59,499 bases of DNA from positions 1 through 59,499 of IMG/VR virus record IMGVR_UViG_3300020599_000008; one strand, written 5' to 3'. Shown here piece by piece: positions 2,723 through 58,415 of the stretch. The DNA is from a virus (lineage: Duplodnaviria; Caudoviricetes). Under the pieces are notes generated by a model. That model searched no databases and was not told where the DNA came from. It saw only the letters and a program-made list of their open reading frames with translations. The first letter of the stretch is position 1. The number at the start of each line of letters is the position of its first letter. Both the position numbers and the translations under genes were made by a program.

Positions 2723-2983
2723 ATGATGAGCATCCCGACGACCCAGGGCCCCACGTACATGGGGTGGCATGACCCGCGCAAGGGCGCGACTCCCACGAGC
2801 CTGACGGACGGCGCGGTTCGGCGCTTCGAGCGCAAGCACGGGCGTGGGCCCGCCGAGTTGGTGGCCCATCCCGACACGACGCTCGATCCCGAGGTCGCGT
2901 CCGGTGTCATGATCCGCACCAGCACCGACGTTCCACTCGGGGTCGTGTGGGTCGGGCCAATCGACAACGTAGCGCGGCATTAG
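2723..2983 (+). CDS. hypothetical protein
   Basis: AGGAG SD preceded by a hairpin. Confidence 0.65.
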   Translation: MMSIPTTQGPTYMGWHDPRKGATPTSLTDGAVRRFERKHGRGPAELVAHPDTTLDPEVASGVMIRTSTDVPLGVVWVGPIDNVARH

Positions 2984-3078
2984 CGCGCCTGAGACATAAA
3001 CGACGAAACGATGCACAATGACCGGCGTGGGTGCCGGGACTGACCGGCAAGGAGGCGGACACCGAAAGAGGCCGACAC

Positions 3079-3255
3079 ATGGGAGTCATGGATCGTGTAC
3101 GTGAGCAGGCCAAGCAGGACATGCTCCCGCGCGAGGGGCGAGACAAGTGGGACCCGCGGGGAGCCCAGCGGGTCATGTGCATCTGGTTTCCCATCATGGC
3201 CCTGGCGATGTGTGTCGTGATCGGTGTTATCAGCGCGATTGCGGGCATCGTGTAA
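3079..3255 (+). CDS. small membrane protein
   Basis: GAGG SD; C-terminal hydrophobic helix. Confidence 0.6.
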   Translation: MGVMDRVREQAKQDMLPREGRDKWDPRGAQRVMCIWFPIMALAMCVVIGVISAIAGIV

Positions 3256-3271
3256 CCCCAAGGAGAATCCC

Positions 3272-3640
3272 ATGACGATTGGCGAAGCGATTGATCGGGC
3301 GATAGCCTCAATCCGGCAGCGCGGCACAAGCGATGAGGTGCTGCTCGACGAGTTGGCGCGCGTCGCCCGGATAGCGTTCCAGCTCGGCAGCACCGCTGCG
3401 CTCGATACCCTGCTGAGTGCCCGCGACGTAGCCGAAGCCCTCGGGGTCTCGCACGACAGCGGCTACGTGGCCCGAATGGCCCGGAAGCACAACATCGGCG
3501 CGGTGATCGCGGGAACGCGGCTCTTCCGCCCCGAGGACCTGGACGAGCTCCGGGCCATCAAGGACGCGGCAGTGCCGGGACGGCGCAAGAGCCACTACCG
3601 CATAATCGACGGGCCCGCGCGACCGCGCGATGACCAGTAA
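3272..3640 (+). CDS. MerR/excisionase-like HTH DNA-binding protein
   Basis: LLSARDVAEALGVS...RLFRPEDL; AAGGAG SD. Confidence 0.75.
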   Translation: MTIGEAIDRAIASIRQRGTSDEVLLDELARVARIAFQLGSTAALDTLLSARDVAEALGVSHDSGYVARMARKHNIGAVIAGTRLFRPEDLDELRAIKDAAVPGRRKSHYRIIDGPARPRDDQ

Positions 3641-3660
3641 TGATCCCACGGGACAAGCAG

Positions 3661-3690
3661 ACGGCCAGCGGTTGTTACGCCGCTGGCCGT
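3661..3690. terminator. hairpin between convergent transcription units
   Basis: ACGGCCAGCGG-8 nt-CCGCTGGCCGT perfect 11-bp stem. Confidence 0.5.
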
Positions 3691-3779
3691 CGCTATGGGG
3701 ATGGGAGGCACACGCCGGGCGTTGACGCTGTACGCTGGTCGCCACTACGGTCAAGGACGACCATCGCCCACTGCAACCC

Positions 3780-4058
3780 CTATCCCCAGAGAATCAGATT
3801 GAACCCGTCGATCTCAGCCTGCGTGAGCCGGCGCGGATCTGCCGACAGCGCCCCGCTCAGTCGTATTTCCATCTGGCTCGCCCCCCGAGACTCCAACTCG
3901 GCCAGCACCTCACGGATGAGCCATTGATTGAGGCGCACGACCGTGTTGCTCGCCTTGCGGTTGCTCCCGAGGTCGATCCGGGGAACTGGTGCCGTCGCGC
4001 GGCCCGTCGCCGTGGTCATGATGTCGCCGGCTCCGACGAACGGAGCGTTGGTTCGCAC
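3780..4058 (-). CDS. hypothetical protein at end of late operon
   Basis: ORF coupled to the holin stop. Confidence 0.5.
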   Translation of the reverse strand: MRTNAPFVGAGDIMTTATGRATAPVPRIDLGSNRKASNTVVRLNQWLIREVLAELESRGASQMEIRLSGALSADPRRLTQAEIDGFNLILWG

Positions 4059-4441
4059 TAGTCGCCTCTCACAACCTTGCCGACTCCCACGGGCGAGTCG
4101 TCGGTCACGTCATCGACCACGAACTCGACCTGCTGGATCTCGTACACCGCCTTCTCGATCAGGGTCCGCCACTGCTCCTCCGTGAGGTTGATCCCGTGGG
4201 CTTCGGCGAGGTCGTAGGCCCTGCTCATCGCGTCGTTGAACTTCTGGCGCGCCTGCGCCCCGGTCCCCGGGGCCAACTGCTCGACCGCCTGGACCGCGAA
4301 TTCCGCGATCTGCCGGGCTTTCGTGAGCTGCGCGTCACTTACCTGTGTGCGCAGGTACGGGATCAGTGCCTTGGACACCACGGCCCCGAGGAGCCCCATC
4401 AGCGCAACCACGAGGGTCACGACCGCTTCCATGATGGTCAT
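4058..4441 (-). CDS. holin (LL-H-like)
   Basis: N-terminal TM helix, IAEFAVQAVEQL motif, adjacent to endolysin. Confidence 0.8.
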   Translation of the reverse strand: MTIMEAVVTLVVALMGLLGAVVSKALIPYLRTQVSDAQLTKARQIAEFAVQAVEQLAPGTGAQARQKFNDAMSRAYDLAEAHGINLTEEQWRTLIEKAVYEIQQVEFVVDDVTDDSPVGVGKVVRGD

Positions 4442-4457
4442 GTCGATCTCCTATGCT

Positions 4458-4485
4458 GCAAACCGATATCGGTTTGCCTAATAAC
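4458..4485. promoter_or_regulatory. 20-bp palindrome, member of a dispersed repeat
   Basis: GCAAACCGATATCGGTTTGC; near copies at 18378 and 51312. Confidence 0.6.
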
Positions 4486-4486
4486 C

Positions 4487-5971
4487 TCAGGCGCGAAGTT
4501 GCGCCAACTCGGCCTTGAGGGCCGCGAGTTCATCGCGTAGCGCCCGGTTCTCCAACCCGAGCAACCCGCGGGTAATCGAGCCGTCGGGCCAGTACTCGAT
4601 GCGCGCGCGCTCGAAGTCCTGGGCGATCAGCGCGGTGCCATCGGTCGAGGTTGACCCGTAGGCCCCGGAGGTCACGTAGCCCGTGTCCTCCCACGGACGC
4701 GCGTTGACGTGATTGACGAACACCCGCGGCACCCAGAACTTCCCGTGTGGCGATCCCCACGGATCCGGCACCGCATCCTCGGTGATGTCGCGTGGCACCG
4801 GCGCGGGCGCGGGCCCGAGTTGGCCGGCACGATACGGACGCACGAACGCGCTCATCAGGGTCCCGGGGCACGACGTTGCGCTGAGTTCCTGATGTCCCCA
4901 CACCTGCGAGCGCGCGCTACCGGACCACTGGATCCACGCGTCCACGACCTCCTGCAGGGCCTTGAGTTGCGCCGCGGTGGCCGACTGGCCGTCCCCGAGG
5001 GGCAACTGCACCGCGATGGCCGTGCGGTTCTGCGAGGCCCCGCAGTGCCACAGCACGCGCTCAAGGTCTCGCATCAGCCACTTGGTCCCGTCGCCGTCGA
5101 TCCCGATGTGGTACATGATGCCGCTGCCGTAGATCGGGGCTTCGCCGCCGGTCGCCCAGTTCTTGCCCACGTGGTACACGGCATCGGCCTGGAGCGAGCT
5201 GAGCCCCGCCCCGGGGTTCGTCACGACCCCGCGGTAATGCACCACGAGCCCACGCTTGTCCTTGAGCGCCACGGTCTCGTACGGCCCTCGTGGCACTCCG
5301 TCGTCCCCTGGCTGCTTGGTCGCGAGCATCGCGCGGGCGTCGCGCAGGCCGGGAATGATGTGATCGTATGGTGTCGCCATGGGCTCCTGCCCTTCCATGA
5401 TGTCGGCCAGTGCGTTGATCTGACCCGCGATGAATTCCGCGTACTGGCGCGGCTTGTTGCCGTCCCGGCTCGGGGCCCAGACGGCGACGACCTCGTAGAT
5501 CGAGACGGCCCCCGCGTTCTGGTAGTCAAACCCCGGTTCCTCGATCCGGTAGATCCCGTCCTGCACGGAATCCAGCACGTCGCGGTACTCGACGTACAGG
5601 GAATCTCGCACCGGATCCCTCACGCGCTTGGCCCTGTCCATGATCTCGGGGTCTCGAATCGACCGTGCGTTCGTGAGGCTCCGGGTATCCATGCGCCATA
5701 GCACGGAATCGCGGTTCATGCCCCACGTGTGCTCGCGCCCCGCGATCCCGAACCAGCGGGCCGGATCATGACCGCGCGCCACGATCAGGCGATAGAGCGC
5801 TCGCGCGGCTTCCTCGGGCGTGCTGAATCGGTCTTCCAGCCCGTTCCACAGCGGATGGGTCGCGGGGTTGAACCGATCGGGCAACGCGCCCTGCGCACGC
5901 CACGCCTCGATCCAGCGGTCTTCCGTGATGGTCGCGGTCGCTTTGAACGGGCTATCGATGGTTACGGCCAT
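4487..5971 (-). CDS. endolysin: lysozyme/glucosaminidase-like domain + Amidase_2 + C-terminal cell-wall motif
   Basis: LVVHY...YHIGI...WHCG...WGHQE..ATSCPG amidase motifs; QDFERARIEYWP..LLGLE C-terminus. Confidence 0.88.
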   Translation of the reverse strand: MAVTIDSPFKATATITEDRWIEAWRAQGALPDRFNPATHPLWNGLEDRFSTPEEAARALYRLIVARGHDPARWFGIAGREHTWGMNRDSVLWRMDTRSLTNARSIRDPEIMDRAKRVRDPVRDSLYVEYRDVLDSVQDGIYRIEEPGFDYQNAGAVSIYEVVAVWAPSRDGNKPRQYAEFIAGQINALADIMEGQEPMATPYDHIIPGLRDARAMLATKQPGDDGVPRGPYETVALKDKRGLVVHYRGVVTNPGAGLSSLQADAVYHVGKNWATGGEAPIYGSGIMYHIGIDGDGTKWLMRDLERVLWHCGASQNRTAIAVQLPLGDGQSATAAQLKALQEVVDAWIQWSGSARSQVWGHQELSATSCPGTLMSAFVRPYRAGQLGPAPAPVPRDITEDAVPDPWGSPHGKFWVPRVFVNHVNARPWEDTGYVTSGAYGSTSTDGTALIAQDFERARIEYWPDGSITRGLLGLENRALRDELAALKAELAQLRA

Positions 5972-27273: not shown

Positions 27274-28846
27274 TGACCGGCTCACCACGGTTCAGCGCGG
27301 CTTCCAGGAGGTCCTGGGCCTCGCGGTCCAGCGGATCGTTCAGCAGGTCGCCCGCGGCCTCCGGAGCCTCGGTCTCGGCCAGCGCGTCGTCAATCTGCTC
27401 CTTGCTGAGCCCGTCCTGCTCCATGAGCAGGCGCTTGCTGTACCCGTATTCGCGCTTCTTGGCCTGCGCCTCGGCCCGCAGCTTGTCGATCGCGGCCTCT
27501 TCGTCCTCGGACAGCGGCAGGACGGACCGATCCTCGAACCGGTGGTTGAGCTGGCCCGCGCGGTAATCCCCAAGCTCCACGAATCCCGGCAGTTTGTGGA
27601 AGCGCCCCATCGAGCACCCCATCTGCTGGGCCCGGATCAGCGCGGCCTCGTGGTTGCCCCGCACCTCGACGGCACGCGAGATCGCGGCGATCAGCATGAC
27701 GCGCAGCGCCTTACCCGAACGGTCGCCGTCGGACTCCGCGATCTCGCCGAACCCAAGCTCCGGGAGATCCGTTTGCTTGGTGTGCTTGAGGTGATCGTTC
27801 AGGACCGCAAGATGCACCTCGTACGGCAGATCCTGGATCATGGGCGCGAGGCCCCAACCTCCGGGCAACCGCCACAGCGTCATGCCCCCGATCTGGATGC
27901 GCTCGCCGTCGTCCTCAATGATCGGCGGCATCATGGGGTTGCCGTCTTCGTCCGTCAGGCTGGATTGCAGCACGAGGTCCGGGCGTCCGAACTGGAACAG
28001 CAGGTCCTCCATGCGGACGGCGAGGCGGTTGCCGTGCAGTGCCTTGACCAGCGCGGGCGTGATGGCCGCGACACCCCGAGGCTGCTGCCGGACGGCCCGG
28101 TGCTTGATGTGGGAGAACGGAATGAAATCGTCGCCCGTCATCTTGACGATCAGGCGCTCCTCATCGGGCTCCCCGAGATCGGGCAGCGTCGCGCGGGTGC
28201 CCTGCTCGTGCTGCCAGCGGCGCATTGTTCCGCGCTCTTTATCCCATACCTCGGTGATGACCACGTCGGTGCGCTCTCCGGTCTCACGATCCAGCTCCGC
28301 GACCTCGGTGTCGAGCCGCAGGTACGTGAAATACCCGCGTTCGTCGACCTCGAAATCCGTCAAACTCGCGGGATCAATCGACTGGATGAACACGCGGTTG
28401 ACCCGGCCCAGCCGATCCACGCTGGTCGCGACCTTGAGCAACCCGTCGCCCAGCATCGCGGTGTTGCGCACGTGCTCCTGTTTGTTGACCGACCAGTTGC
28501 TCCACTCCCAGATCTGGTGGATCGCGGCAATCAGGGCGTCGGGATTCTCGACATCCTCCCCCGGATCGATCGGCAGCGCCTCGGGGAGCGCACCGGGCCA
28601 GACGGTCGCGACGTAGAACTCGACCGCTGCCTGCGTGGGGTTGCGGTACCCGGGGATCGTCTGCTCGCCGGACAGCTCGACCCGGTCGTTGAAGTAGAGG
28701 TCGCTCAGGACCTCGTACATCCCCACCACGTCCTCGACATCGCGCCCCTGGCTGATCTGGGCCAGCATCGCGTAATCGCGGTAGCGGTCGCCAAAGAGCG
28801 CCCGTAGGGCATCGACCGCCGTCGCGGCCCGCTCAACTATTGTCAT
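27266..28846 (-). CDS. portal protein
   Basis: 526 aa between TerL and MuF; SGKALR motif. Confidence 0.85.
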   Translation of the reverse strand: MTIVERAATAVDALRALFGDRYRDYAMLAQISQGRDVEDVVGMYEVLSDLYFNDRVELSGEQTIPGYRNPTQAAVEFYVATVWPGALPEALPIDPGEDVENPDALIAAIHQIWEWSNWSVNKQEHVRNTAMLGDGLLKVATSVDRLGRVNRVFIQSIDPASLTDFEVDERGYFTYLRLDTEVAELDRETGERTDVVITEVWDKERGTMRRWQHEQGTRATLPDLGEPDEERLIVKMTGDDFIPFSHIKHRAVRQQPRGVAAITPALVKALHGNRLAVRMEDLLFQFGRPDLVLQSSLTDEDGNPMMPPIIEDDGERIQIGGMTLWRLPGGWGLAPMIQDLPYEVHLAVLNDHLKHTKQTDLPELGFGEIAESDGDRSGKALRVMLIAAISRAVEVRGNHEAALIRAQQMGCSMGRFHKLPGFVELGDYRAGQLNHRFEDRSVLPLSEDEEAAIDKLRAEAQAKKREYGYSKRLLMEQDGLSKEQIDDALAETEAPEAAGDLLNDPLDREAQDLLEAALNRGEPVNA

Positions 28847-30324
28847 GCTGCTTCCTGCTCCTTCTTGGCTCGTCGTCGGAATCCGTGTTCAAGCTCGCGC
28901 TTGACCCGGTTGATTGCGCCGCTGGTTGCGTCGACCTGATCGGCAAACGCGCCGGTCGGGAAGTCGAATAGCTCGCGCTCGTAGTCGTTGAGCCACGGGA
29001 CCAGCGGCCCCGGCTCCGGCAGTTCCACCATCCCGACGGCGCACCACGACGCCGCGGCATGAGCCCGCGCGACCTTGGAGAGTCGTGGGATTGAGCGCCG
29101 CATGAGCCGCGCGAGCCACTCATCGGCCTGCATCCGCAGACTCTGGTACGCCTGACGCCCTGACGACGCGTACTCGATGTCCACGACCCGCAGTTTCCCG
29201 TCGTGGTTGTGCCGCGTGGCCGTGGACTCAATCAGTGCCAGCAACGCCGGGAACTCGACGCGTTTACGCACCACCTCGACGATGCGCAGCCGGTACGCAG
29301 TGGTCAGCTCCGCCACCACCCCCACGGTGTACGCCGCGCTCGTGTCATCCTCTTCGGCGGTGTCCCAATAGATAAGGCGCGCAACGGTGTCGTGATAGTC
29401 GACCTCGGGATCGTAGCGATTGCGCCGGTGCCACCAGTCCGCGAGGAATACCGCGCCACCGTCGGCTTGTGGCTGACCCTGGTACAGGGCCCAGAATCCC
29501 CGTTCGCCCTGCGCCACCCGGATGGCCGCGAGCTCCTCCTCGTCGAATCGTGCCGGCCACAACGCCGCGCCGGGTTTGCGTTCTAGCGGATCATCATCGA
29601 GCGCAAGCGCCGGAAGATGCACGACCTCCCAATTGGGCCCGTCGTCCGATGCCAGAATGCGACCCGCGAGATCATCGCGATGCCACCGCGTCATGATCAG
29701 GATCATGGCTGCGCCCGGCTCACGACGCGTCAGCAGATCATCGGTGTACCAGTCCCAGACTTTGTCGCGGAACACCGCGCTATCGGCCTCGGCACGGCTC
29801 TTGACCGGGTCATCAATGACGATCAGGTCGCCACCCATGCCCGTGACACCACCACCCACGCCAACGGCCCGCACGCCGCCGCCCTGCTCGGTTTCCCACT
29901 GGTCCGCGGTGTTGCGCTCGCGCGACAGTTGCACGAGCCCACGATCCCGCGTGATGCGCCGGATCCGGCGCGAGAACGAGGCAGCCAGCGTGTGGTTGTA
30001 CGCCGCGACGATGACGCGCAACCGGGGATTCTGCTCTAGCCGGTACGCCGAATACCGGACCGTCACGGTCTCGGACTTGGAGTGACGGGGTGGCAGGAAC
30101 AGCATGAGTTTCCGAGTGGTGCCTGATGTGACGCGCCCCACGGCATCCTGAATCATCCCGAGGTGCGCGGGCGTCCAGTCGAATTCCGGCGACGCCTCGG
30201 GCAGCCACGCGCGGAAGTTTTCGGCCGAACGCTGCTCATCCTCCGGGGCGATCCGGTGGGTGAACTGATCAAGCAGTGATGCGGCTAATGTCGGCCTGGA
30301 TTGCGGCCAGAGCGTCGCGGTCAC
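28843..30324 (-). CDS. terL: terminase large subunit
   Basis: PPRHSKS Walker A-like, LIVIDDPVK Walker B, MTRWH, YQGQP, DQVDA nuclease motif. Confidence 0.95.
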   Translation of the reverse strand: MTATLWPQSRPTLAASLLDQFTHRIAPEDEQRSAENFRAWLPEASPEFDWTPAHLGMIQDAVGRVTSGTTRKLMLFLPPRHSKSETVTVRYSAYRLEQNPRLRVIVAAYNHTLAASFSRRIRRITRDRGLVQLSRERNTADQWETEQGGGVRAVGVGGGVTGMGGDLIVIDDPVKSRAEADSAVFRDKVWDWYTDDLLTRREPGAAMILIMTRWHRDDLAGRILASDDGPNWEVVHLPALALDDDPLERKPGAALWPARFDEEELAAIRVAQGERGFWALYQGQPQADGGAVFLADWWHRRNRYDPEVDYHDTVARLIYWDTAEEDDTSAAYTVGVVAELTTAYRLRIVEVVRKRVEFPALLALIESTATRHNHDGKLRVVDIEYASSGRQAYQSLRMQADEWLARLMRRSIPRLSKVARAHAAASWCAVGMVELPEPGPLVPWLNDYERELFDFPTGAFADQVDATSGAINRVKRELEHGFRRRAKKEQEAA

Positions 30325-30934
30325 GCACGTTCTTCCTCACCGATTCGGCAATCGTGGCAATCAGGGTCATGGCCTGTTCCGCCGTGATCATCTGCTGCAT
30401 CGCGACCATGCGTTTCTGCTCGGACTCCACGAGCTTGCGCCGCTGCTCGATCAGCGCCATGACCTCACGCCACGCCGCGTAGTCCGCGGCACCACGACCA
30501 ATCAGCGCATCAACCTCACTCAGGGCCTCGGCGATCTTGTCGCGATCGCGTGACGCGTGCGCCTGCTTGAACCCCTGCCACGCGCTGAAGATCCCGCTCC
30601 ACAGGTGCCCCGCTTCCCCTGTGTCGACGCGCCCCAGTACGTCGGAAAGCCGCGCATCCACGAGCGAAATGTCAGCCCGCAGTGCCAGCAACTCAGGGTC
30701 CTGCAACGACGCATCGAATCGCTCTAGCAGGCGCGCGGGCATGGCCTTGGAGTAGCGACCGTGCCGGAACGCCGGGTTAGCGATGCCGGGCAGCGATTTG
30801 CCCCCGTGCATGCGGCACCGACCGTTCGCCATTGGCCGCTGCGTACAGGGCCTGCCACTGCGCGTTTTGGCCCCGCAGATGGCATGGGGCGGCTTTTCTG
30901 GCATGGGGTGCGAACTCGCGGGCACAGCGCTCAC
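30269..30934 (-). CDS. terminase small subunit-like (HGGxSTG domain)
   Basis: CGAKTRSG.PC...NGRCRMHGGKS...HGRYS; directly upstream of terL. Confidence 0.8.
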   Translation of the reverse strand: MSAVPASSHPMPEKPPHAICGAKTRSGRPCTQRPMANGRCRMHGGKSLPGIANPAFRHGRYSKAMPARLLERFDASLQDPELLALRADISLVDARLSDVLGRVDTGEAGHLWSGIFSAWQGFKQAHASRDRDKIAEALSEVDALIGRGAADYAAWREVMALIEQRRKLVESEQKRMVAMQQMITAEQAMTLIATIAESVRKNVRDRDALAAIQADISRITA

Positions 30935-31641
30935 CGGTGGTCATTCCAGCACGACACAATGCAGGCGTCCGGGTAGAAATCCCACGTGGGCGAATTCGCG
31001 GGCATCTTGCGCGTTTCCACGTGATCGAACCATCGGCGCATCCGCTCCATCCGGGCCATCAGGCTCGCGACCACGCGGTCAGCGTTGAAGTGGTACTCAA
31101 ACGCCATCTTCTGGACTCCGTCGAATCGGCACGTGTCCAGGATCGCGAGCTCCGCGCCCTCGATATCGAGCTTGATGCCGTCCGGCTGATAGCGATCCAG
31201 AATGTCGTTGAACGCGACCGTTGGGACCGGGATCGACTGACGTCGCAGCGTCGGGATGATCGTGTGGCGATACAGGTTGCGCCCCGACGACGCGACGAAG
31301 AGCTCGACCAGTGGGCCCTCGGGTTCGGCCAGGACGGCGGCGTGCTCGACGTGGCCGTGCAACCCGTTGATCTTGAGGTTGTGGCTCAGCATCCGAGCGT
31401 TATCGGGATGAGCCTCGTACGCGAACACCTCGGCCCCGAGCGCAGCGGCCATCACGCTGAATGACCCGATGTTTCCCCCAAGGTCCAGCCAGCGTTCTCC
31501 CCGCTCGATCGTGACGCCGCGCTGCAGATAGACCCGCTGATCCACGACCTCGTGGATTGCTTTCGCGTCGGTGGTGTCGGGCCGTACATCGAAGATCAGG
31601 CCACTGGTCGCGATGCGCTCCAAGTCGGTTGTCGCGGTCAT
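30931..31641 (-). CDS. FkbM-family methyltransferase
   Basis: WLDLGGNIGSF...AYEAHP.N...IKLDIEGAE. Confidence 0.9.
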   Translation of the reverse strand: MTATTDLERIATSGLIFDVRPDTTDAKAIHEVVDQRVYLQRGVTIERGERWLDLGGNIGSFSVMAAALGAEVFAYEAHPDNARMLSHNLKINGLHGHVEHAAVLAEPEGPLVELFVASSGRNLYRHTIIPTLRRQSIPVPTVAFNDILDRYQPDGIKLDIEGAELAILDTCRFDGVQKMAFEYHFNADRVVASLMARMERMRRWFDHVETRKMPANSPTWDFYPDACIVSCWNDHR

Positions 31642-32465
31642 GAGGCACCGCCGTTCAAGCGCCGGAGCTCACGATCAAGACGACGCTTCTGGGCCCGGAT
31701 AATCTCGTCGTCCAGCGGCAGGCACGACCACATTTGCTTGAGCGAGTAGTACACGATGCTATAGCGATAGGCGTCCTCACTCAGCAGCGCGATGGGTGTG
31801 ACCCCGTGGACCAGAGATTGACCGTCGAACATCAGGAGCGAATTGTTGGGCAGGTGGAACGCGCAGTCGAATTCCGGAGTCGCGAGATAGCCACCCCCGA
31901 TATCCCGCTTGAATACCAGCATGTTGGACCAGACGTCCGCGAAGTTGCCGGCGTCGAAGTGATAGAGCAACGGATTGTTGAAGTTGATGATCCCCGAGGT
32001 GAACACCGAATCCTCCATGCGCCACTGCTCCCGGACCTTGCGGGTCTGGTGCTCGTGCCGATGGTAGCGATCGGGGTTGTACTGCTCGTAGTAGGTGCTA
32101 ACCCGCGTGGCATACCGCGCGATGATGTCGTGGGCCTCGGGATTCTCGCGGGCCAGCGCCGCCGCAGTGCAGAAGTCGCGTCGCGGCAGTGATCGCGGCT
32201 GAAAGCCGAACACCTTGGATCGACTCTTGACGCCGTTGAATCGCGCGCCCTCGGGATACTGGATCTCCGGGAGCACACGCTCGATCTCGGTCGAGTCATC
32301 ATCGAGCACCAGATACACGATCAGCAGTTCCCCGGTGTCGGCATCGTGGATCAGGGCACTGTCACGAATCAGAGTCGTGTAGTCGCTCTCGGCGGGGGCG
32401 CGGTTTTTGTACTCGTGGAGGTCCAGATCCCGCCGTTTCAGGTGCAGGACATCAGGCTCACGCAT
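31638..32465 (-). CDS. TET/JBP-family 2OG-Fe(II) dioxygenase
   Basis: FTSGIIN...YHFDAGN (HxD), VHGVTPI, RYSIVYY. Confidence 0.85.
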   Translation of the reverse strand: MREPDVLHLKRRDLDLHEYKNRAPAESDYTTLIRDSALIHDADTGELLIVYLVLDDDSTEIERVLPEIQYPEGARFNGVKSRSKVFGFQPRSLPRRDFCTAAALARENPEAHDIIARYATRVSTYYEQYNPDRYHRHEHQTRKVREQWRMEDSVFTSGIINFNNPLLYHFDAGNFADVWSNMLVFKRDIGGGYLATPEFDCAFHLPNNSLLMFDGQSLVHGVTPIALLSEDAYRYSIVYYSLKQMWSCLPLDDEIIRAQKRRLDRELRRLNGGAS

Positions 32466-33163
32466 GGGGTCCAGCCTCCAGGTGGTGCCGCAGCGCCGCC
32501 TCCACCACGTCGACACTCGTCTCGGCTCCGTCGCGATCCATCAGGTCGCGCACCAGCCCCAGAACTCGGGCGTACCGCTCGGTATCCATGATGAGCACAA
32601 TCTGTCGCACCGAAGTGTTGGCGTAGGACGCGGCGCGCGCGTCCTTGGTTGCGCTCTCGTCGTACCCCCCCCTCCAGCACGATGGCCCTGGTGTGATCGA
32701 CACGCATATCATCGCGGGGATCCGGTTCGCCGCCCGGCTGAGCCGCGGCCCCGAGGATGCTGTCGAGTTCCCACGAATGCCAGAGCCCCCCGAGATCAAC
32801 CTGCTGCTCCATATCGCGCAGCACATCGGTATCCCACTCGGCCAACTCCGCCGCGCGATTGTCGTAGAGCGCGAGCCGCGTCTTCTGCTCCTCGCTCAGG
32901 CCGGTGCGCCGTACCGCCACGATGGTGTCGCCGTCGGCATCCACCACAACGACGCGCTCGATCCCGGCCTGTGCCGCGGCCTCGATCGTGGCATTGCCCG
33001 CGAGCACGACGTTGTTCTCGTCCACAACTATGGAGCGCCCGGCCCCAACCTCACGCAGCGCCGCCTCGATCATCCCGACGTTCCGCGCGGTGTGGCGTCG
33101 TGCATTCTGGGGATCAGGGGTCAGGTGTCCGATATGGCTCACCTCTGGTCCAGGGTTCGGCAT
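32458..33163 (-). CDS. ParB/Srx-like protein, split by a frameshift at a G8 tract (32665-32672)
   Basis: LTPDPQNARRH...IVVDENNVVLAGNAT...LALYDNR; C-terminal part in the alternate frame ends at the TET start codon. Confidence 0.75.
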
Positions 33164-33247
33164 GCCGATCCTCTCGTTGTCCAGTCGATCCACCCGGGAG
33201 GGGGCCGGGACCCGCGTGGGGTTCGAATCACGAGCCCCGGCAGCATG

Positions 33248-33276
33248 AGTGTACGGTGAATACATAATCAGGGCAA
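33248..33276 (-). promoter_or_regulatory. promoter for late operon
   Basis: Minus strand TTGCCC-17-TACACT, back-to-back with the plus-strand promoter. Confidence 0.55.
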
Positions 33277-33296
33277 TATCAAGAGAGTCAATAGTA

Positions 33297-33349
33297 TTGA
33301 CATGCTGTACAGGATACCGTATAATCATGGTGTTGGGGTAAGCGGCCCC
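33297..33349 (+). promoter_or_regulatory. consensus sigma70 promoter plus TAAGCGG hairpin (copy 3)
   Basis: TTGACA-17-TATAAT; nearly identical to 145-197. Confidence 0.9.
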
Positions 33350-33379
33350 GACGCGAGAGACCAGAGAGAGGACAACCCC

Positions 33380-33565
33380 ATGGACAACCCCGATTTTGTC
33401 GCGATGTTTGCCGAGGCGCTGGACGACGAGATGTTGATCGCGCAGTACCGGGTGTACCGCGAACGTGCTGCCGCCGACACCGCTGATATCGCGGCAGATG
33501 CGATTGTCCAGTCGCTCACCTCGGTGCTGAAAGATCGCGGCCTGTCGATCCCCCAAGAGGACTAG
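33380..33565 (+). CDS. small acidic protein
   Basis: GAGAGAGGA SD. Confidence 0.7.
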   Translation: MDNPDFVAMFAEALDDEMLIAQYRVYRERAAADTADIAADAIVQSLTSVLKDRGLSIPQED

Positions 33566-33616
33566 CACCAAGCGGCGCGGGGCTTCACGGCCCCGCGCTC
33601 CCGAAAGGATCACGAC

Positions 33617-34264
33617 ATGACACGCACAGGATTCCCGCAGCAGGTCGATGCCAGTGATCGGGTCAACGCAGTCAACGCGATGATCGGGGGCAACCCGTGG
33701 TTCATCGACGTGCTGTTCAAGGTCTGGACCAGCGGGGTCCAGACCGGCGTTGTCACGATCTCGACTGTCACGACGGCAGGTGGACGCGCCGAATACGCCG
33801 AGCGGGCGGTCCGGTACGCCGCGGACCGCTTCCGAGCCGCAGGGATCGCGGCACCGGTCGACAACCACACGGGCGAGTGGCGCGCCATCGTGGACCTGCC
33901 CGACGATGTGGTCCGCACGGTTCTCATCGGAGCCGGACTCGACACCACCATCACGGTCATGATCCCGGGCAAGGCGTGGGACCGACTAACCGACTGGCGC
34001 GACGACCGACCCGTGTACGCGACGCTCATGCAGGCGCTCGACAACGCCACGGAACGCCGCTGGGGCTCTGGTACTCGCGTTACCGTGACAGTCACGCGGG
34101 AAGATGCGCAACTGCTCGCCACCGAATGCCAGGAGCGCGGGGACTACGAGATCGACACCGCCGATGGCTGGCGCGGCTATGACTCCTACACGGCTCGGGA
34201 TTTACGCGCCGTTGGACGCGCGCTCATCAAGACCGGCCAGCAGATTCGACAGCAACTCGCATAG
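33617..34264 (+). CDS. hypothetical protein
   Basis: Hairpin plus GAAAGGA SD. Confidence 0.7.
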   Translation: MTRTGFPQQVDASDRVNAVNAMIGGNPWFIDVLFKVWTSGVQTGVVTISTVTTAGGRAEYAERAVRYAADRFRAAGIAAPVDNHTGEWRAIVDLPDDVVRTVLIGAGLDTTITVMIPGKAWDRLTDWRDDRPVYATLMQALDNATERRWGSGTRVTVTVTREDAQLLATECQERGDYEIDTADGWRGYDSYTARDLRAVGRALIKTGQQIRQQLA

Positions 34265-34322
34265 GAAGAACGACCGGGGCGGGCTAGCAGGCCCGCCCCG
34301 CACACGAAAGGATCACCCCCCG

Positions 34323-34991
34323 ATGCTATGCGACAAGCGCGCACTCCGGGGTTTCATCACTCGCTCGATCAACGGGGTGTCACTCCGGGTCATCCCGGCA
34401 GGCGATAGCCAGCCGTACGACTACTGGCTGACCGACGGGTATGCGGCGTACCGCGTGCCGGCCAACCTGCTCACCACGTTGCTCCCGGACCAGATGGCCA
34501 CGATCCAGCAGCATGACTCCGGGCAGGGCTGGAAGCTCATGAAGGGCGAACCGCTCGAACCGTGCGACTTCACCCACGAGGACATGCTCGGCTTGGTGGA
34601 CTACGACCACGATCACCACGCCGCCCAAATCACCCGCGTGCTGATCGACCTCATCGGGCGCTATCAGGGCGAGGTTCGCTGCCGGGTCGTGATCCCCGTG
34701 CTGCCCGAAGGCCAGGACCCGAGCCCTGATGCCCCATCGTTGTTCATCAACGAGCAATACCTCGCGATCCTGAACGACGCGCTGCACGGCTATCGCTACA
34801 CCATTGCGCCGTGTCGCTGGATTTCCACGACCTACGGCCACGGCCTCGCGGTCTACCGAGGCACCGGCGATCACTATGAACCGGAACGTGACGACCTCGT
34901 GGCCTTCATCATGCCGATGGTCGGGGAGCATCCCGAACGCCTCGATATCCGCGCGATCATCAACGCGGCCAGCGTGCTCACCAACGTATAG
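34323..34991 (+). CDS. hypothetical protein, weakly sliding-clamp-like
   Basis: Hairpin plus GAAAGGA SD; TDGY..YRV, INEQYL, IMPM motifs. Confidence 0.65.
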   Translation: MLCDKRALRGFITRSINGVSLRVIPAGDSQPYDYWLTDGYAAYRVPANLLTTLLPDQMATIQQHDSGQGWKLMKGEPLEPCDFTHEDMLGLVDYDHDHHAAQITRVLIDLIGRYQGEVRCRVVIPVLPEGQDPSPDAPSLFINEQYLAILNDALHGYRYTIAPCRWISTTYGHGLAVYRGTGDHYEPERDDLVAFIMPMVGEHPERLDIRAIINAASVLTNV

Positions 34992-35074
34992 GCCATGACA
35001 TCCGGGCACACCTTGCACTAGTGCTCGCGCCGAGTATCATCCGAACATGGGTTCTACCAGAGAGGATGCACAGC

Positions 35075-35386
35075 ATGGTCAAAGAACCGCAGGTTGTCGT
35101 CAGTATCCCGATCCCCGAGGGCGTCGACGTGGGGGTGATCGAGCGAGCAACAGGCTCAATCCTCACGTTCGCGGGGAATCCGTACGAACTGGTCCGGATC
35201 GGGGTCCTGCTCACCGAATACGTGAGCAACGCGAAGCGCATGAATCGTCATCTGGAGAACACCGGGGACGGCAGCATGGCATTCGGGAACCTCACCGGAA
35301 TGCCTGAACTCGACGGCATGTCGGTCGACAGTCTCCGGGCGTTCGCGAGCGAGCTCCGAGGATGGATCAACGATCAGGCGCAGTAG
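35075..35386 (+). CDS. hypothetical protein
   Basis: GAGAGGA SD; possible TTGCAC-16-TATCAT promoter. Confidence 0.65.
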   Translation: MVKEPQVVVSIPIPEGVDVGVIERATGSILTFAGNPYELVRIGVLLTEYVSNAKRMNRHLENTGDGSMAFGNLTGMPELDGMSVDSLRAFASELRGWINDQAQ

Positions 35387-35579: not shown

Positions 35580-35638
35580 AAGTGCGGCTCTAGCCGCAAA
35601 CCTCAACCGCCAGGAACACGCCATGACAGCCGAGATAG

Positions 35639-35710
35639 TGGCGGGGGCAGGATTCGAACCTGCGACCTCGGGGATATGAGCCCCGCGCGCTGCCACTGCG
35701 CTACCCCGGC
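35639..35710 (-). tRNA. tRNA-Met(CAT) (initiator/elongator/Ile2 identity unresolved)
   Basis: Cloverleaf with CGGGG-CTCATAT-CCCCG and GCAGG-TTCGAAT-CCTGC; no encoded CCA. Confidence 0.88.
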
Positions 35711-35814: not shown

Positions 35815-35820
35815 GGCCGG

Positions 35821-35893
35821 AGCGACGGGAGGGAATCGAACCCTCAACATCCTGCTTGGAAGGCAGGCACTCTGCCGATTGAGTTACCATCGC
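35821..35893 (-). tRNA. tRNA-Gly(TCC)
   Basis: GCGATGG/CCGTCGC acceptor, U73, CCTGC-CTTCCAA-GCAGG, GAGGG-TTCGATT-CCCTC. Confidence 0.92.
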
Positions 35894-41258: not shown

Positions 41259-41547
41259 TCCGCACCGCCCAGACTAGTTCCAGCGCCGCGAGAGCGACAC
41301 GGGCGCGTTCGCCGTAATCTGCCATCCAGGCATACATCGGCAATCCCGGCCCTTGATGCAGCGACACTTTCTCTCCCGCTGCACTCGATTCATCGTCGTA
41401 GTTGCTCTTGTCCGCGTACCAGCGCAGCGTGCCGATCATCAGGCGAATGAGATGCGGTTCAGTCATGAACCCGCGGGCGCGGGATTCCTCCGCGAGCTCA
41501 AGGCGCTTGATCAGGGATAGTTCGGCGTCTCGGTGCCATTGGCTCAT
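41248..41547 (-). CDS. hypothetical protein
   Basis: LRWYADKSNY...DYGERAR.AL phage motif. Confidence 0.65.
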   Translation of the reverse strand: MSQWHRDAELSLIKRLELAEESRARGFMTEPHLIRLMIGTLRWYADKSNYDDESSAAGEKVSLHQGPGLPMYAWMADYGERARVALAALELVWAVRNES

Positions 41548-42302
41548 GACTGCCACCCCCGCGCATCCACGATCAACATGACGGTCCGGACCCCGGTGCC
41601 CGAGGGCTTGAACGCGCCGTCCGGCAGGTCCAGGAACGTGCCGCCCATTTTGTCGATGAAGTCGCGGAACTCCACGGTGTTGCGATTCGAGCGGAATCGC
41701 ACGCTGGCCGACATGATTGAGACCAGTCGCCCGCCGCGCTTCAGGAACCGCAGCGCGTGCTCCACGTGCGCAATGTCCTGCTGCCGTGCAAACGGCGGGT
41801 TCATGACCACGCGGTCGAACAGACTCGGGTACCGGCTCGTGAGGAAGTCGTCGGGGGTTGTCGGGAAACCCTGACCTATCAGCTCCACCGCCCGGCCCGC
41901 GTGGATCTCTTGGCACACGACCACGCCGCCCGCGTCGCGTGCTGGCCGCGCCAGAGCCCCGAGCCCCGCCGACGGTTCCAGTACGGTCATCCCGGGCTCA
42001 ATCTGCGCGGCCTCGATCACCATGTTGGCGATGTTCGCCGGCGTCTCGAACCACCCGAGGTCATCGGGCCGGTCATACGTCCCGGTCAGCACCACGGCGT
42101 CGAGCGCGTCGCTCGGGTCCGCGTCGAACATGTGGCCCCGGGCGCGGCGATTCCACCGACCCCCCAGAGCCGTCAGAACCTTGTTGACCGCCTCGTAGAG
42201 CGGGCGGTCGAGCTGTCGATCCGGCAGATACAGGGTCGTGTCCTCGACCCGACAGTCCGCCAGAACATCGAGGGTTTCGTTGCTGATCGCTACCATGCGC
42301 AT
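41544..42302 (-). CDS. SAM-dependent methyltransferase (NPPF; probable adenine MTase)
   Basis: FETP, VLEPSAGLG, DFL, VVMNPPF, LKRGGRLV. Confidence 0.88.
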   Translation of the reverse strand: MRMVAISNETLDVLADCRVEDTTLYLPDRQLDRPLYEAVNKVLTALGGRWNRRARGHMFDADPSDALDAVVLTGTYDRPDDLGWFETPANIANMVIEAAQIEPGMTVLEPSAGLGALARPARDAGGVVVCQEIHAGRAVELIGQGFPTTPDDFLTSRYPSLFDRVVMNPPFARQQDIAHVEHALRFLKRGGRLVSIMSASVRFRSNRNTVEFRDFIDKMGGTFLDLPDGAFKPSGTGVRTVMLIVDARGWQS

Positions 42303-47137: not shown

Positions 47138-47464
47138 CTACACTCCTCGGCGAGCTGCAGAACGCGCCGAGCCCACGTACTCCGGCAGGCACCTGCCCAC
47201 CAGCACCCGCGCGGCGTCCTCAGCGGTATCAAACGTCTGCTCGTTGTTGAGTGGCGGCATCGTGGCGCTCGAGGGACCACGGCATACCCACCCTCGGGCA
47301 CCCCAGTCCACGACGTGCCCGAGGACACGGCCCAGCGCCAAAACCTCGACGATCATGTGGGGCCACTGGACGTTGCCGAATGGCCGGATGTTGCTGCCGG
47401 TCGACACATCGGTCAGCGTGGTGTTGACCACGATGTTGTCGAGCTCGACCGCGATGGTCATCAT
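47138..47464 (-). CDS. hypothetical protein
   Basis: Coupled to MTase stop. Confidence 0.6.
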   Translation of the reverse strand: MMTIAVELDNIVVNTTLTDVSTGSNIRPFGNVQWPHMIVEVLALGRVLGHVVDWGARGWVCRGPSSATMPPLNNEQTFDTAEDAARVLVGRCLPEYVGSARSAARRGV

Positions 47465-48381
47465 CCTGCTGCCTCCTCTCGCACTTCCACCTGATTGAGC
47501 AGCGGGGCATCGCCCGCGATCCTGCGCCGCGCCATCGCGGCATAGTCGGGGTTCAGCTCGATCCCGAGGAACCGCCGCCCGTGTCGTAGCGCCACAACCC
47601 CGACGGTGCCGGAACCCGCGAACGGATCCAGCACAACATCACCCTCGCGCGAACCCGCGAGCACGCAGGGCTCGACCAGGGCTTCGGGAAACGTTGCGAA
47701 ATGGACCGTTGGGACGCGTTGCGGCGCAACGGTCCAGACCGATCGCTTGTTGGCCCCGTGGGCCATCTGCTCGGCCCGGGGCATCGCGTCCCAACGGTCC
47801 GCGAACCCATCGTGCCGGCGCGCGTGACCGCGCTGCCGTTCGGCTCGGCCCTGCCGGTGGAATCGGCCATGTGGGCCAGCATCGGTGTCCCAGCCGGTCG
47901 GGACGCGCAGCGGGGCCGTAGACCGCGCGGGCTCACGGATCGCGGCGGCGTCGTACCGGTAGTGGCGCTGCCGGGCCAGCAGGAACAGATACTCGTGGGC
48001 CGTGGTGCAGCGATCCTGCACACTCTGGGGCATCGGGTTGGGCTTCGCCCAGATGATGTCCTGCCGGAGTATCCAGCCATCTGCCTGTAGCGCGAACGCG
48101 ACACGCCACGGAATCCCCAGCAGGTTCTTGTCCGGCGCGTAGGCATCGCCGAGATTCAGCCACACGACACCATCGGGCCGCAGAACCCGCGCAACCTCGC
48201 GAAACACCGCGACCTGCCCCGCGATGTACTGGTCGAGCGTCGGCTCAAGGCCCATCTGGCCGGAAACGCCGTAGTCTCGGAGTTGCCAGTAGGGCGGCGA
48301 CGTGATGCAGCACTGAACCGACGCATCCTCGACGCCCTGTAGCACGTCGCGCACATCTCCGACGCGGATTTCGGCACTCAT
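47461..48381 (-). CDS. DNA methyltransferase, N4/N6 (beta class)
   Basis: TSPPYW, WAKPNPMP, HFATFP, VLDPFAGSGT, GIELN. Confidence 0.93.
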   Translation of the reverse strand: MSAEIRVGDVRDVLQGVEDASVQCCITSPPYWQLRDYGVSGQMGLEPTLDQYIAGQVAVFREVARVLRPDGVVWLNLGDAYAPDKNLLGIPWRVAFALQADGWILRQDIIWAKPNPMPQSVQDRCTTAHEYLFLLARQRHYRYDAAAIREPARSTAPLRVPTGWDTDAGPHGRFHRQGRAERQRGHARRHDGFADRWDAMPRAEQMAHGANKRSVWTVAPQRVPTVHFATFPEALVEPCVLAGSREGDVVLDPFAGSGTVGVVALRHGRRFLGIELNPDYAAMARRRIAGDAPLLNQVEVREEAAG

Positions 48382-56521: not shown

Positions 56522-57220
56522 GTGAGCACCAAAGTGGGCCAGTTGATTCGGAATCGACGCCGTGAGCTGCAGTTGACACAGGAGGGGCTCGAGGAATTGG
56601 CACAGGTGAGCCAGACCTATATCAGCATGTTGGAGACGGGGCAAATCACGCGGCCCGAGATCGAGACATTGCGGCTATTCGCTGACTCACTGAACATCCC
56701 GATGAGGGACTTGATGATTGCGGCTGGTTGGCTCCAGATCGAGCCAGTGGTCGTGACCGAGGATGCGGTTGAGGTCGCAGTTCTGGGTGATGTCCCGGGG
56801 CCCGTGCCCTCGACTAGCGAAACTGAAGGCGGCGATGCAGTGATCCGGGTACTGCCCGAGATGATCGGGAGAGCGAACGAACCGTTTGCCCTGCGCGCAA
56901 CTGATAACGAGTGGATGCAGCGCGGCATTGTGGCGGGCAATTACGTGCTATGCGAGACATTCGACGATCAGGACGGGGCCCACGAGCCCGAGGTCGGGCA
57001 ACTGGTCGCGGTCGAGATAGACCGCGAGATCGTGCGGCTCGTCACATGGTCGCGTGAGGGCGATGCCGCGGTGCTGGACGGTGGTCAGGGGGTTGGCGAG
57101 GTGCTGCGGTCCCGCGCGTGGGCCCGGCGTGTCCGCGTCCTCGGGACCTACATCTATCATCTGGCCCCGCCGCCGGCGTCGCTCCTGGAACTCGCGACCA
57201 CCGCGCCCGAGAGCCGGTGA
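56522..57220 (+). CDS. CI-like repressor (XRE HTH + degenerate S24-like domain)
   Basis: LTQEGL..LAQVSQTYISMLETG; VAVLG.VPG, FALRA; the canonical GDSM serine motif is not evident. Confidence 0.85.
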   Translation: MSTKVGQLIRNRRRELQLTQEGLEELAQVSQTYISMLETGQITRPEIETLRLFADSLNIPMRDLMIAAGWLQIEPVVVTEDAVEVAVLGDVPGPVPSTSETEGGDAVIRVLPEMIGRANEPFALRATDNEWMQRGIVAGNYVLCETFDDQDGAHEPEVGQLVAVEIDREIVRLVTWSREGDAAVLDGGQGVGEVLRSRAWARRVRVLGTYIYHLAPPPASLLELATTAPESR

Positions 57221-57224
57221 CGCG

Positions 57225-58415
57225 GTGGTGAAGCCGAAGAAGAAGCCGGAGAAGCGCACCAGCATCCACGCGGGCGTCTACCCGAGCGGCGCGACCCACT
57301 GGCAGTACAAGCTCCGGTTACCGCGCCAACCCGACGGTACCCGGCCCATGGAAACCCGCGGGGGATTCCCGACCGACCAAGCGGCCCACGAGGCCCGGGT
57401 GCGCCGCCTGGTCCAGATCTACGATGGCATCGCGGTGGAGCCGGGTGACGAGACGGTCGAGCAGTACCTGCGGGCCTGGCTGAAACTGCGGGCTGACCAC
57501 GTGCGCCCGTCGACCGACTATAACTACCGCCGTACCGCGGAGCTGTTCATCTACCCGTACATCGGCGACATCCGCGTCCGGGCCCTGCGGGCCGATCACG
57601 TCGAGGCGTGGTTGCGAAGGTTACGCCACGAACATCTCAACGAGAAGACGGGCAGACGGGGGCTGGCCACATCGAGCATGAGGATGGCCCGGAGCATTCT
57701 GGTCGCAGGGCTCAACCACGCGGTGACGGTCCGGCGCATCCTGCCGTTCAACCCGGCGGCCAGCGTCGAGATCCCCCAGGGGGAGCCCACGGGCCGCGTG
57801 CTGGCGTGGACCGAGGATGAGCTGGCCCGCGTGCTCCCGTTCATCGATAAGGATCGCCACGCACTCATCTGGTACCTCGGGCTCTTCCTGCAGATGCGCC
57901 CCGGCGAGATTCTGGCGCTCACGCGCGACGACGTGGATCTCGCGCGTGGCGAGATCGCGGTCCGGCGCACCATTGCGCGCACCGCCTCGGGGCGCTTCGT
58001 GGTGTCGAACATGACGAAGCGCGAGTCCAGCGCGCGTACAATCCCCATGACGCGACGGATCCAGGAGTTGATGCGCGAGCATCTGGATCAACAGGATATC
58101 ATCGCGGCCAGCCGCGAGCGCGCGCGCGAGTGGAACATCCAACGGCTCGTCTTCCCCTCGTCCCGCACCGGATCGATCCGGGGGCACGCGTGGATGCGTG
58201 GATGCCTCGCGACGCTGTGCACGGCCGCCGAGGTGTCGCGTATCTCGCCCCACGGCCTGCGTCACACCGGCGCGACGTGGCTGATTCGTCGGGGCGTGTC
58301 AGCCGCGGTCGTGAGCCAGCGCCTCGGTCACTCGTCCGTGGCGTTCACGTTATCGCGGTACGTGCATCCCGATATGGGGGACCAGCGGACGGCGGGCGAG
58401 ATACTGGAATCGTAA
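57225..58415 (+). CDS. int: tyrosine integrase
   Basis: MRPGEILAL, HGLRHT.AT, RLGHS...T..RYVH catalytic residues. Confidence 0.95.
   Translation: MVKPKKKPEKRTSIHAGVYPSGATHWQYKLRLPRQPDGTRPMETRGGFPTDQAAHEARVRRLVQIYDGIAVEPGDETVEQYLRAWLKLRADHVRPSTDYNYRRTAELFIYPYIGDIRVRALRADHVEAWLRRLRHEHLNEKTGRRGLATSSMRMARSILVAGLNHAVTVRRILPFNPAASVEIPQGEPTGRVLAWTEDELARVLPFIDKDRHALIWYLGLFLQMRPGEILALTRDDVDLARGEIAVRRTIARTASGRFVVSNMTKRESSARTIPMTRRIQELMREHLDQQDIIAASRERAREWNIQRLVFPSSRTGSIRGHAWMRGCLATLCTAAEVSRISPHGLRHTGATWLIRRGVSAAVVSQRLGHSSVAFTLSRYVHPDMGDQRTAGEILES

Follow-up and report, generated by a model that had tools for sequence, protein, structure and literature searches.

Why does a phage place a methyltransferase gene of the FkbM family directly behind a ParB-like gene and a TET/JBP-type dioxygenase, at the head of its packaging genes? 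Could the methyltransferase act on the very base that the dioxygenase has oxidised? These questions are raised by IMGVR_UViG_3300020599_000008, an IMG/VR record of a soil virus of the Caudoviricetes. The record of 59,499 bases, all of which was analysed and which we call the window, is a whole virus (CheckV completeness 97%) without end repeats. An earlier reading, made from the sequence alone, had proposed that the three-gene module O-methylates 5-hydroxymethyluracil (5hmU) or 5-hydroxymethylcytosine (5hmC), possibly under targeting by ParB. We tentatively favour, at somewhat less than an even chance, a post-replicative modification of thymine (T) in DNA, from T through 5hmU to 5-methoxymethyluracil, in which FkbM serves as the O-methylating tailor and which is encoded at the head of the packaging/late operon.

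The ParB-like, TET/JBP and FkbM genes open a long block of structural and lysis genes on the minus strand. In its corrected reading the ParB-like gene extends from 33163 to 32458 (minus strand) and joins an N-terminal part to a C-terminal part in the +1 frame. It is followed on the same strand by the TET/JBP-type 2-oxoglutarate/Fe(II) dioxygenase (275 amino acids (aa), 32465-31638, PF12851) and the FkbM-family S-adenosylmethionine (SAM) methyltransferase (236 aa, 30931-31641, PF05050 and TIGR01444). The overlaps measure 8 nt between ParB and TET, 4 nt between TET and FkbM (ATGA, TET stop and FkbM start) and 4 nt between FkbM and a small-terminase-like (TerS-like) gene (GTGA, FkbM stop and TerS-like start). 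The sequence-only reading had described three overlapping genes that run into the small terminase, and this arrangement is real: an HGGxSTG small-terminase-like gene and the large terminase subunit (TerL) come next.

Is the dioxygenase an intact member of the TET/JBP family? The gene passes Pfam PF12851 (E 3.3e-13, 49.6 bits, cut-off 34.9) and is the sole match to this family in a six-frame search of the record (E 2.9e-15). Its most likely start is the ATG at 32465-32463 rather than the GTG at 32516. Numbered from this ATG, the residues H169-x-D171, H220 and R234-x-S236, which had been called intact, are indeed present, and 83-84 of the 84 aligned relatives share them. An AlphaFold (AF2) model (pLDDT 87.4) finds its nearest solved structures in NgTET1 (E 1.2e-12, TM 0.62), CcTet, TET2 and CMD1, all at E 1e-12 to 1e-10; AlkB and FTO match at 1e-7 only, clearly more weakly than the TET enzymes. 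Beyond the last core strand (233-240) the model shows a long C-terminal helix (251-272). The phage collection contains TET relatives in 111 records, all less than 60% identical and mostly from actinophages. Between the window and two relatives from sludge and wastewater metagenomes, 19 of the 20 listed differences within TET lie at third codon positions, a bias that would point to selection on TET.

Phage TET/JBP enzymes (5mYOX) that lie beside a short ParB homologue are thymine dioxygenases, as a recent study has shown (O'Toole et al., PNAS 2026, PMC13229309). They need their cognate ParB on double-stranded DNA, and this ParB is described as an activator whose N domain binds nucleotides and whose C-terminal domain dimerises, with no obvious DNA-binding domain; both domains are required, and deletion of the C-terminal one leaves 2% activity (PMC13229309). 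Activation is thus the published role, in place of the targeting that had been suggested for ParB. A C-terminal extension is reported there only in ParB-dependent enzymes. The gene of the window shares the traits of that subclass, namely an adjacent upstream ParB-like gene, no C5-cytosine methyltransferase (C5-MT) and a C-terminal extension, and it is probably a ParB-dependent thymine dioxygenase, an assignment made from gene context and features. The earlier view of a C5-MT and glycosyltransferases as the usual partners of phage TET/JBP enzymes is out of date: a C5-MT is found in only ~6% of 5mYOX contigs, and plain thymine is oxidised by ParB-linked relatives without any methyltransferase (PMC13229309). 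For these two reasons 5hmU would be a much more likely product here than 5hmC.

The ParB-like gene required a correction. All three genes that the sequence-only reading had called are real, but it missed that its ParB open reading frame (ORF; 32438-33163) is a frameshifted reading, in which the frame is open but the last third is not in the evolved frame. In a frame plot of G+C at third codon positions, the coding signal quits the ParB frame at ~32700 and resumes in the +1 frame (0.80-0.82 versus 0.35-0.72), and the switch sits at a run of eight G (32665..32672, minus strand). The N-terminal part, a probable ParB/Srx-type domain plus linker, comprises 164 codons (32671..33163, minus strand); the C-terminal part is read in the +1 frame over 70 codons (32458..32670, minus strand) and ends at the TGA at 32460-32458, which produces the overlap of 8 nt with the TET ATG. 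Contigs from four public runs were aligned to the cassette region. Eight G also stand in the contig that Logan assembled independently from the probable source run (59,475 bases, depth 66), while an otherwise identical landfill contig has seven G, as do a sludge contig and a wastewater contig, each 98% identical, both of which additionally interrupt the run by a substitution. Seven G in three other metagenomes indicate an intact ParB of ~234 residues, with one G added in the present record. Near-identical phages in these three metagenomes carry intact ParB; the extra G may reflect true variation, slippage or a homopolymer error. A search of viral contigs for the flank pattern of the G run gave no matches. 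Just upstream of the run, in the ParB linker, the sludge and wastewater relatives have three single-base insertions at 32729-32738 with a net gain of one codon, so the linker evidently tolerates a change of length.

The label ParB derives from several comparisons. The N-terminal 164 residues have 636 database relatives (54-76% identity among the 120 listed) and match ten PHROG families, seven of them annotated as ParB-like or nuclease, with phrog_620 as the best (E 2.7e-24). In the ESM-Atlas the neighbours of the N domain (score 0.96) fall in clusters with PF02195, the nearest named ones being ParB/Srx N-terminal. Cassette relatives in one IMG/VR locus (L014) and in pelagiphage HTVC112P pass Pfam ParB_N. 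C-terminal parts of ParB relatives are highly variable; that of the window does not align with them, and a search against longer proteins gave no relatives at E<=0.001, which is weak evidence.

What kind of methyltransferase follows the dioxygenase? The FkbM gene passes both PF05050 (E 7.9e-12, 46.1 bits, cut-off 22.7) and TIGR01444 (E 1.6e-19, 70.8 bits, cut-off 37.7), and its AlphaFold model reaches a pLDDT of 95.3. Residues D53, G55, G59, E76, K157, D159, E161, G162 and E164 are 96-100% conserved in 83 viral and 90 cellular FkbM ORFs; the motifs are the SAM motif DxGxxxG, the acidic residue after strand 2, and K157-x-D159-x-E161-G-x-E164. A further set, R20, E31, Y38, W51 (99%), R125 and F185, is invariant in the viral, TET-linked ORFs and rare in cellular relatives, and the FkbM of the window appears to belong to a virus-specific, TET-linked subfamily. 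Among sequences in the PDB, its profile finds only one that covers most of the domain, 2py6 (E 2.3e-6, positions 34-187); other matches are shorter and lie mostly in the SAM-binding region. The family is known for O-methylation of hydroxyls, and (D/N/S)PP(Y/F/W) is the motif of N6-adenine/N4-cytosine DNA methyltransferases. We considered FkbM as a C5-pyrimidine methyltransferase and as an N6-adenine/N4-cytosine methyltransferase and rejected both. C5 or amino methylation is made unlikely by an alignment of 29 relatives, which contains no invariant or nearly invariant Cys and no (D/N/S)PP(Y/F/W) motif. A predicted complex of TET and FkbM, run without controls, scored 0.00.

Does FkbM accompany TET beyond this phage? 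A search of viral contigs with the single FkbM sequence confirmed no locus; a scan based on the 29-relative alignment succeeded and yielded at least 335 IMG/VR relatives, of which the best 80, ranked by similarity, were kept. TET lies within 4 kb of FkbM in 79 of these 80 loci, many of which are near-duplicates from marine samples, so that the figures count loci and not independent events. TET was called at E<1e-50 and then with a profile built without TET::FkbM fusions, since the fusions gave spurious weak matches on FkbM ORFs; the fusion-free profile finds TET in 86 of 87 loci. ParB is present in 73/80 by an iterated profile, a count that depends on the profile (56/87 by first-pass phmmer, 39/87 with a profile of close relatives). 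For comparison, one genome per prokaryote species was searched and the best 80 cellular FkbM relatives were kept. They are partial and distant (best E 7e-15), and none of the 80 has TET or ParB nearby.

Three of the 80 viral loci carry TET and FkbM as a single ORF with both Pfam domains (Tet_JBP and Methyltransf_21): L015 at 2954-4657 of a 260-kb contig, L029 at 3086-4714 with a virophage capsid gene of the Sputnik type and a GNAT gene next to it, and L033 at 728-2335 with a ParB-like ORF upstream. Giant-virus-like contigs with Rpb1, TBP or SET-domain genes also have FkbM near TET (L012, L016 and L018; directly adjacent in L012 and L018), and ParB was not detected in these three loci. The one locus without TET within 4 kb is L010 (2015-4684), where a 442-aa radical SAM enzyme (PF04055, E 1.1e-10) stands between the ParB-like gene and FkbM, in the usual place of TET; it may be an alternative oxidising or alkylating partner.

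Which enzymes of known pathways are missing? A six-frame search of the whole record with PF00145 gave no candidate C5-MT, and the same search was positive in 9 of 14 control genomes. A Pfam scan of 79 window ORFs contained no glycosyltransferase, P-loop nucleotide kinase or amino-acid:DNA transferase; neither the kinase PF18751 nor ADDT PF18724, of the hypermodification pathway by 5hmU kinase and amino-acid:DNA transferase, is among them. The absence of a C5-MT and a glycosyltransferase that had been noted from the letters alone is borne out by these searches. We opened the records of four related actinophages, Tonitrus (Rhodococcus), CaiB (Gordonia), Rich (Mycobacterium) and MementoMori (Microbacterium), all of which have the order ParB-TET-tailoring genes-terminase at the left end of the genome. 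As positive controls, the same Pfam library finds ADDT and Ploopntkinase3 in the tailoring slot of Tonitrus and CaiB, TAGT, PIG-L and a kinase in that of Rich, and a kinase alone in that of MementoMori. FkbM thus appears to fill the slot that kinase, transferase or glycosyltransferase genes take in related actinophages, an observation that is new here.

The cassette also keeps its place relative to the packaging genes. In the window, FkbM is followed on the minus strand by the HGGxSTG-domain protein in small-terminase position (30269-30934; NF041373 E 1.5e-11, no Pfam match; its role is taken from position only), TerL (28843-30324; Terminase_6N E 1.3e-12, Terminase_6C E 1.9e-08) and the portal gene. 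Of the viral loci, 56 extend at least 2.5 kb downstream and 52 of these have a large same-strand ORF within 3 kb; the first such ORF is a large terminase in 32 (three Pfam types), the portal in 9, another gene in 2 and without assignment in 9. Terminase or portal therefore comes first in 41/52. This position at the head of the packaging operon, across three terminase types, is compatible with a modification timed with packaging; it does not establish a physical link to the terminase.

How might the cassette work? We propose that its genes are the first to be transcribed in the packaging/late operon. TET/JBP, aided by the ParB-like activator, would convert thymine in double-stranded phage DNA into 5hmU by hydroxylation of its methyl group, as expected from the class of the enzyme. 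FkbM would then move the SAM methyl onto the TET product, most likely the new hydroxyl, to give 5-methoxymethyluracil; this step is suggested by the linkage to TET, the TET::FkbM fusions and the slot replacement. The case that FkbM acts in the TET pathway is strengthened by the same observations, with linkage in 79/80 viral against 0/80 cellular loci, three fusions and the exchange of genes in the tailoring slot.

Several points weigh against this proposal, among them the redundancy of the viral loci and the contextual basis of the subclass assignment mentioned above. The product of FkbM, and even its substrate, are deduced from linkage. Foldseek and a wide fold search both find in FkbM a generic class I methyltransferase fold, with Z scores of 12-14.5 tied among rRNA, tRNA, protein and small-molecule enzymes (the sole solved FkbM, 2py6, has Z 12.6 and a root-mean-square deviation of 2.8 to the model), and a fold so generic gives no clue to the substrate. 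His184, a candidate general base, does not vary among the 29 closest relatives, yet 96% of the 83 viral ORFs have Ser in its place. The order ParB-FkbM-TET prevails in 70 of the 80 viral loci and that of the window occurs in 1. Pfam ParB_N misses this ParB family (the window gene, and 0/21 members even at E<=1), and the profile of the ParB N domain has no match among PDB sequences. Finally, ParB is frameshifted in the present record: the extra G puts its C-terminal domain out of frame, so that, barring a frame regained by slippage, the first step probably runs weakly or not at all here.

Would the group that FkbM methylates be a hydroxyl at all? TET might take T as far as 5-carboxyuracil (5caU), from which FkbM would form the methyl ester, 5-methoxycarbonyluracil, or FkbM might act on some other oxidation state. 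Carboxyl methylation needs no general base, in agreement with the non-conserved His184, and R20 and R125, rare in cellular FkbM, could bind a carboxylate or a phosphate; the habit of the family, on the other hand, is to methylate hydroxyls. Both tested 5mYOX subclasses oxidise iteratively, but with a ParB-dependent enzyme 5-formyluracil and 5caU each stay below 3% of oxidised T (PMC13229309), and we regard such an ester as improbable. A small chance, no larger, goes to the reverse sequence of events, in which FkbM is an unorthodox DNA (or RNA) methyltransferase whose methyl is oxidised by TET. FkbM before TET in most relatives would also suit such a pathway. In phage C5-MT/TET pairs the methyltransferase acts first and TET then oxidises (Burke et al. 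2021, PMC8256090). Fungal CcTet oxidises N6-methyladenine (6mA), and a structure of CcTet with 6mA DNA ranks with the best fold matches of the TET model; several ParB-linked 5mYOX, moreover, gave less than 5% 5hmU in E. coli (PMC13229309). Against this sequence of events stand the missing Cys and DPPY-type motif of FkbM, the position of TET ahead of FkbM in the window and in the fusions, the post-oxidation enzymes in the slot of related actinophages, and the ability of ParB-linked relatives to use thymine that no methyltransferase has touched (PMC13229309). If the substrate were instead 5-methylcytosine (5mC) from a Dcm-like host enzyme, the product would be 5-methoxymethylcytosine. A tested ParB-dependent enzyme does handle T and 5mC comparably on XP12 DNA (PMC13229309), and the host may supply a C5-MT. 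The 97%-complete record itself has none, however, as have all but the ~6% of 5mYOX contigs cited above, and the spread of the cassette over actinobacteria, Prochlorococcus, Pelagibacter and the eukaryotic hosts of giant viruses makes dependence on a host enzyme unlikely; we consider this the slimmest of the possibilities.

Two further explanations do without a base methylated by FkbM. FkbM may have a substrate other than nucleic acid, such as a virion protein, glycan or small molecule, and share with TET nothing more than late expression, a view with which its uninformative fold would agree. Yet the three independent fusions and the linkage of TET to viral but not to cellular FkbM in the loci compared speak against it, as does the lack of a glycosyltransferase in the Pfam scan, and we hold it to be very unlikely. 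Less easily dismissed, though still unlikely, is that the cassette is a decaying remnant in the present record, the ParB frameshift being truly inactivating in a temperate phage and no modification being made. The eight G recur in the independent Logan assembly at depth 66, and an enzyme whose ParB lacks the C-terminal domain is nearly inactive (PMC13229309). TET and FkbM, in contrast, are intact, the run counts seven G in the landfill contig, which is identical apart from it, and in the two contigs of 98% identity, and the same picture would result from a homopolymer error or a slippage-prone tract; contigs hide minority variants. A wider form of the proposed thymine modification is possible but on the doubtful side: viral FkbM would O-methylate TET-made 5hmU in finished DNA to 5-methoxymethyluracil, as one two-enzyme route shared by actinophages, cyanophages, pelagiphages, virophage-like elements and giant viruses, and the G7/G8 tract of ParB would be a slippage-prone on/off switch.

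What does the locus add to what is in print? With its ParB-TET part it adds a member to a class published in 2026; its FkbM step is a variant not yet characterised, and the co-occurrence is in print already. The earlier statement that similar neighbourhoods had been noted computationally is right: Dataset S10 of the 2026 study tabulates 'O-methyltransferase (FkbM), Methyltransf_21' in 1,479, 1,751 and 1,777 contigs (6.2-7.0%), and the word FkbM is absent from the main text (PMC13229309). The window therefore adds another member and comparative arguments, and is not a first sighting. The available part of an earlier paper mentions ParB and terminase near TET genes, and not FkbM (Burke et al. 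2021, PMC8256090). In agreement with the claim that no product is established, full-text literature searches found none for an FkbM-TET cassette, nor did literature searches find a report of 5-methoxymethyluracil in natural DNA. New here are the replacement in the slot by FkbM, the contrast between viral and cellular FkbM in TET linkage together with the fusions, and the ParB frameshift caused by an eighth G. If FkbM does cap 5hmU, only two enzymes and an activator would be needed to make, after replication, a new natural DNA base shared by soil actinophages, marine phages and giant viruses. It would bear on phage resistance to restriction and on the sequencing of environmental viral DNA, and would offer a compact toolkit for site-selective DNA alkoxymethylation. 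FkbM, kinase/transferase or glycosyltransferase behind the same ParB-TET pair makes a clear, testable framework.

The remainder of the record reads as a temperate tailed phage from its gene content, with a tyrosine integrase (57054-58415), a helix-turn-helix repressor-like gene (56522-57220), replication genes and an RNA ligase. Its G+C content is high (~65%), and its host is probably actinobacterial. Two amino-type DNA methyltransferases are encoded on the minus strand, one at 47461-48381 (N6_N4_Mtase E 5.9e-47) and one of 252 aa at 41544-42302 (weak N6_Mtase, with matches to parts of large PHROG DNA-methyltransferase families), so the phage may carry several DNA marks. Genes for tRNA-Met(CAT) and tRNA-Gly(TCC) (35638-35710 and 35819-35893, minus strand) separate the early region from the modification/packaging operon. 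In the divergent intergenic gap at 33164-33301 each strand bears promoter-like sequence. On the minus strand a consensus scan alone places a sigma-70-like site, TTGACT-16-GATTAT, ahead of the ParB start (33264..33291; 2 sites against 0.8 expected in shuffles). Pointing away from ParB, the plus strand at 33297-33325 matches the sigma-70 consensus TTGACA-17-TATAAT at 12/12 positions, which is unusual for a genome of 65% G+C; it points into a block of four ORFs without family match (33302-35386, plus strand). At the DNA level, a search of the cassette region against the phage collection gave no near matches.

How does the cassette compare with known systems? Like the ParB-dependent 5mYOX of clade C1 (for example 5mYOX176/ParB176), it has TET/JBP directly beside a short ParB-like gene, here with a probable N-terminal ParB/Srx-type domain and a separate C part, no neighbouring C5-MT, a dioxygenase with a C-terminal extension, and tailoring genes and terminase nearby; it differs from these published systems in that its tailoring enzyme is FkbM instead of GATase, kinase or amino-acid:DNA transferase (AADT), and in its frameshifted ParB (PMC13229309). 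With Tonitrus, CaiB, Rich and MementoMori the window shares gene order and position before the terminase, and their TET proteins are 33-36% identical to its own; unlike the window, they carry a kinase, amino-acid:DNA transferase or glycosyltransferase and no FkbM in the stretch examined. The best FkbM relatives among isolated phages belong to cyanophages MED4-117, MED4-184 and P-HS2 and to pelagiphage HTVC112P (29-30% identical over 91-95% of the length), for whose cassettes literature searches found no characterisation. In these phages, too, ParB, FkbM and TET are neighbours and precede the terminase. The cyanophages have the order ParB-FkbM-TET, whereas HTVC112P shares that of the window, and all four cassettes, unlike ours, sit in low-GC genomes with unrelated hosts. 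An analogy, and only that, is offered by the tRNA pathway from ho5U to mo5U, in which a hydroxylase is followed by the SAM O-methyltransferase TrmR. It differs from the cassette in its RNA substrate, in a hydroxyl that sits on the ring and not on a hydroxymethyl group, and in its unrelated enzyme families, TrmR (5zw3) being one of the generic fold matches of FkbM (Z 12.2). The chemical logic is nonetheless alike: position 5 of uracil is hydroxylated and then O-methylated from SAM.

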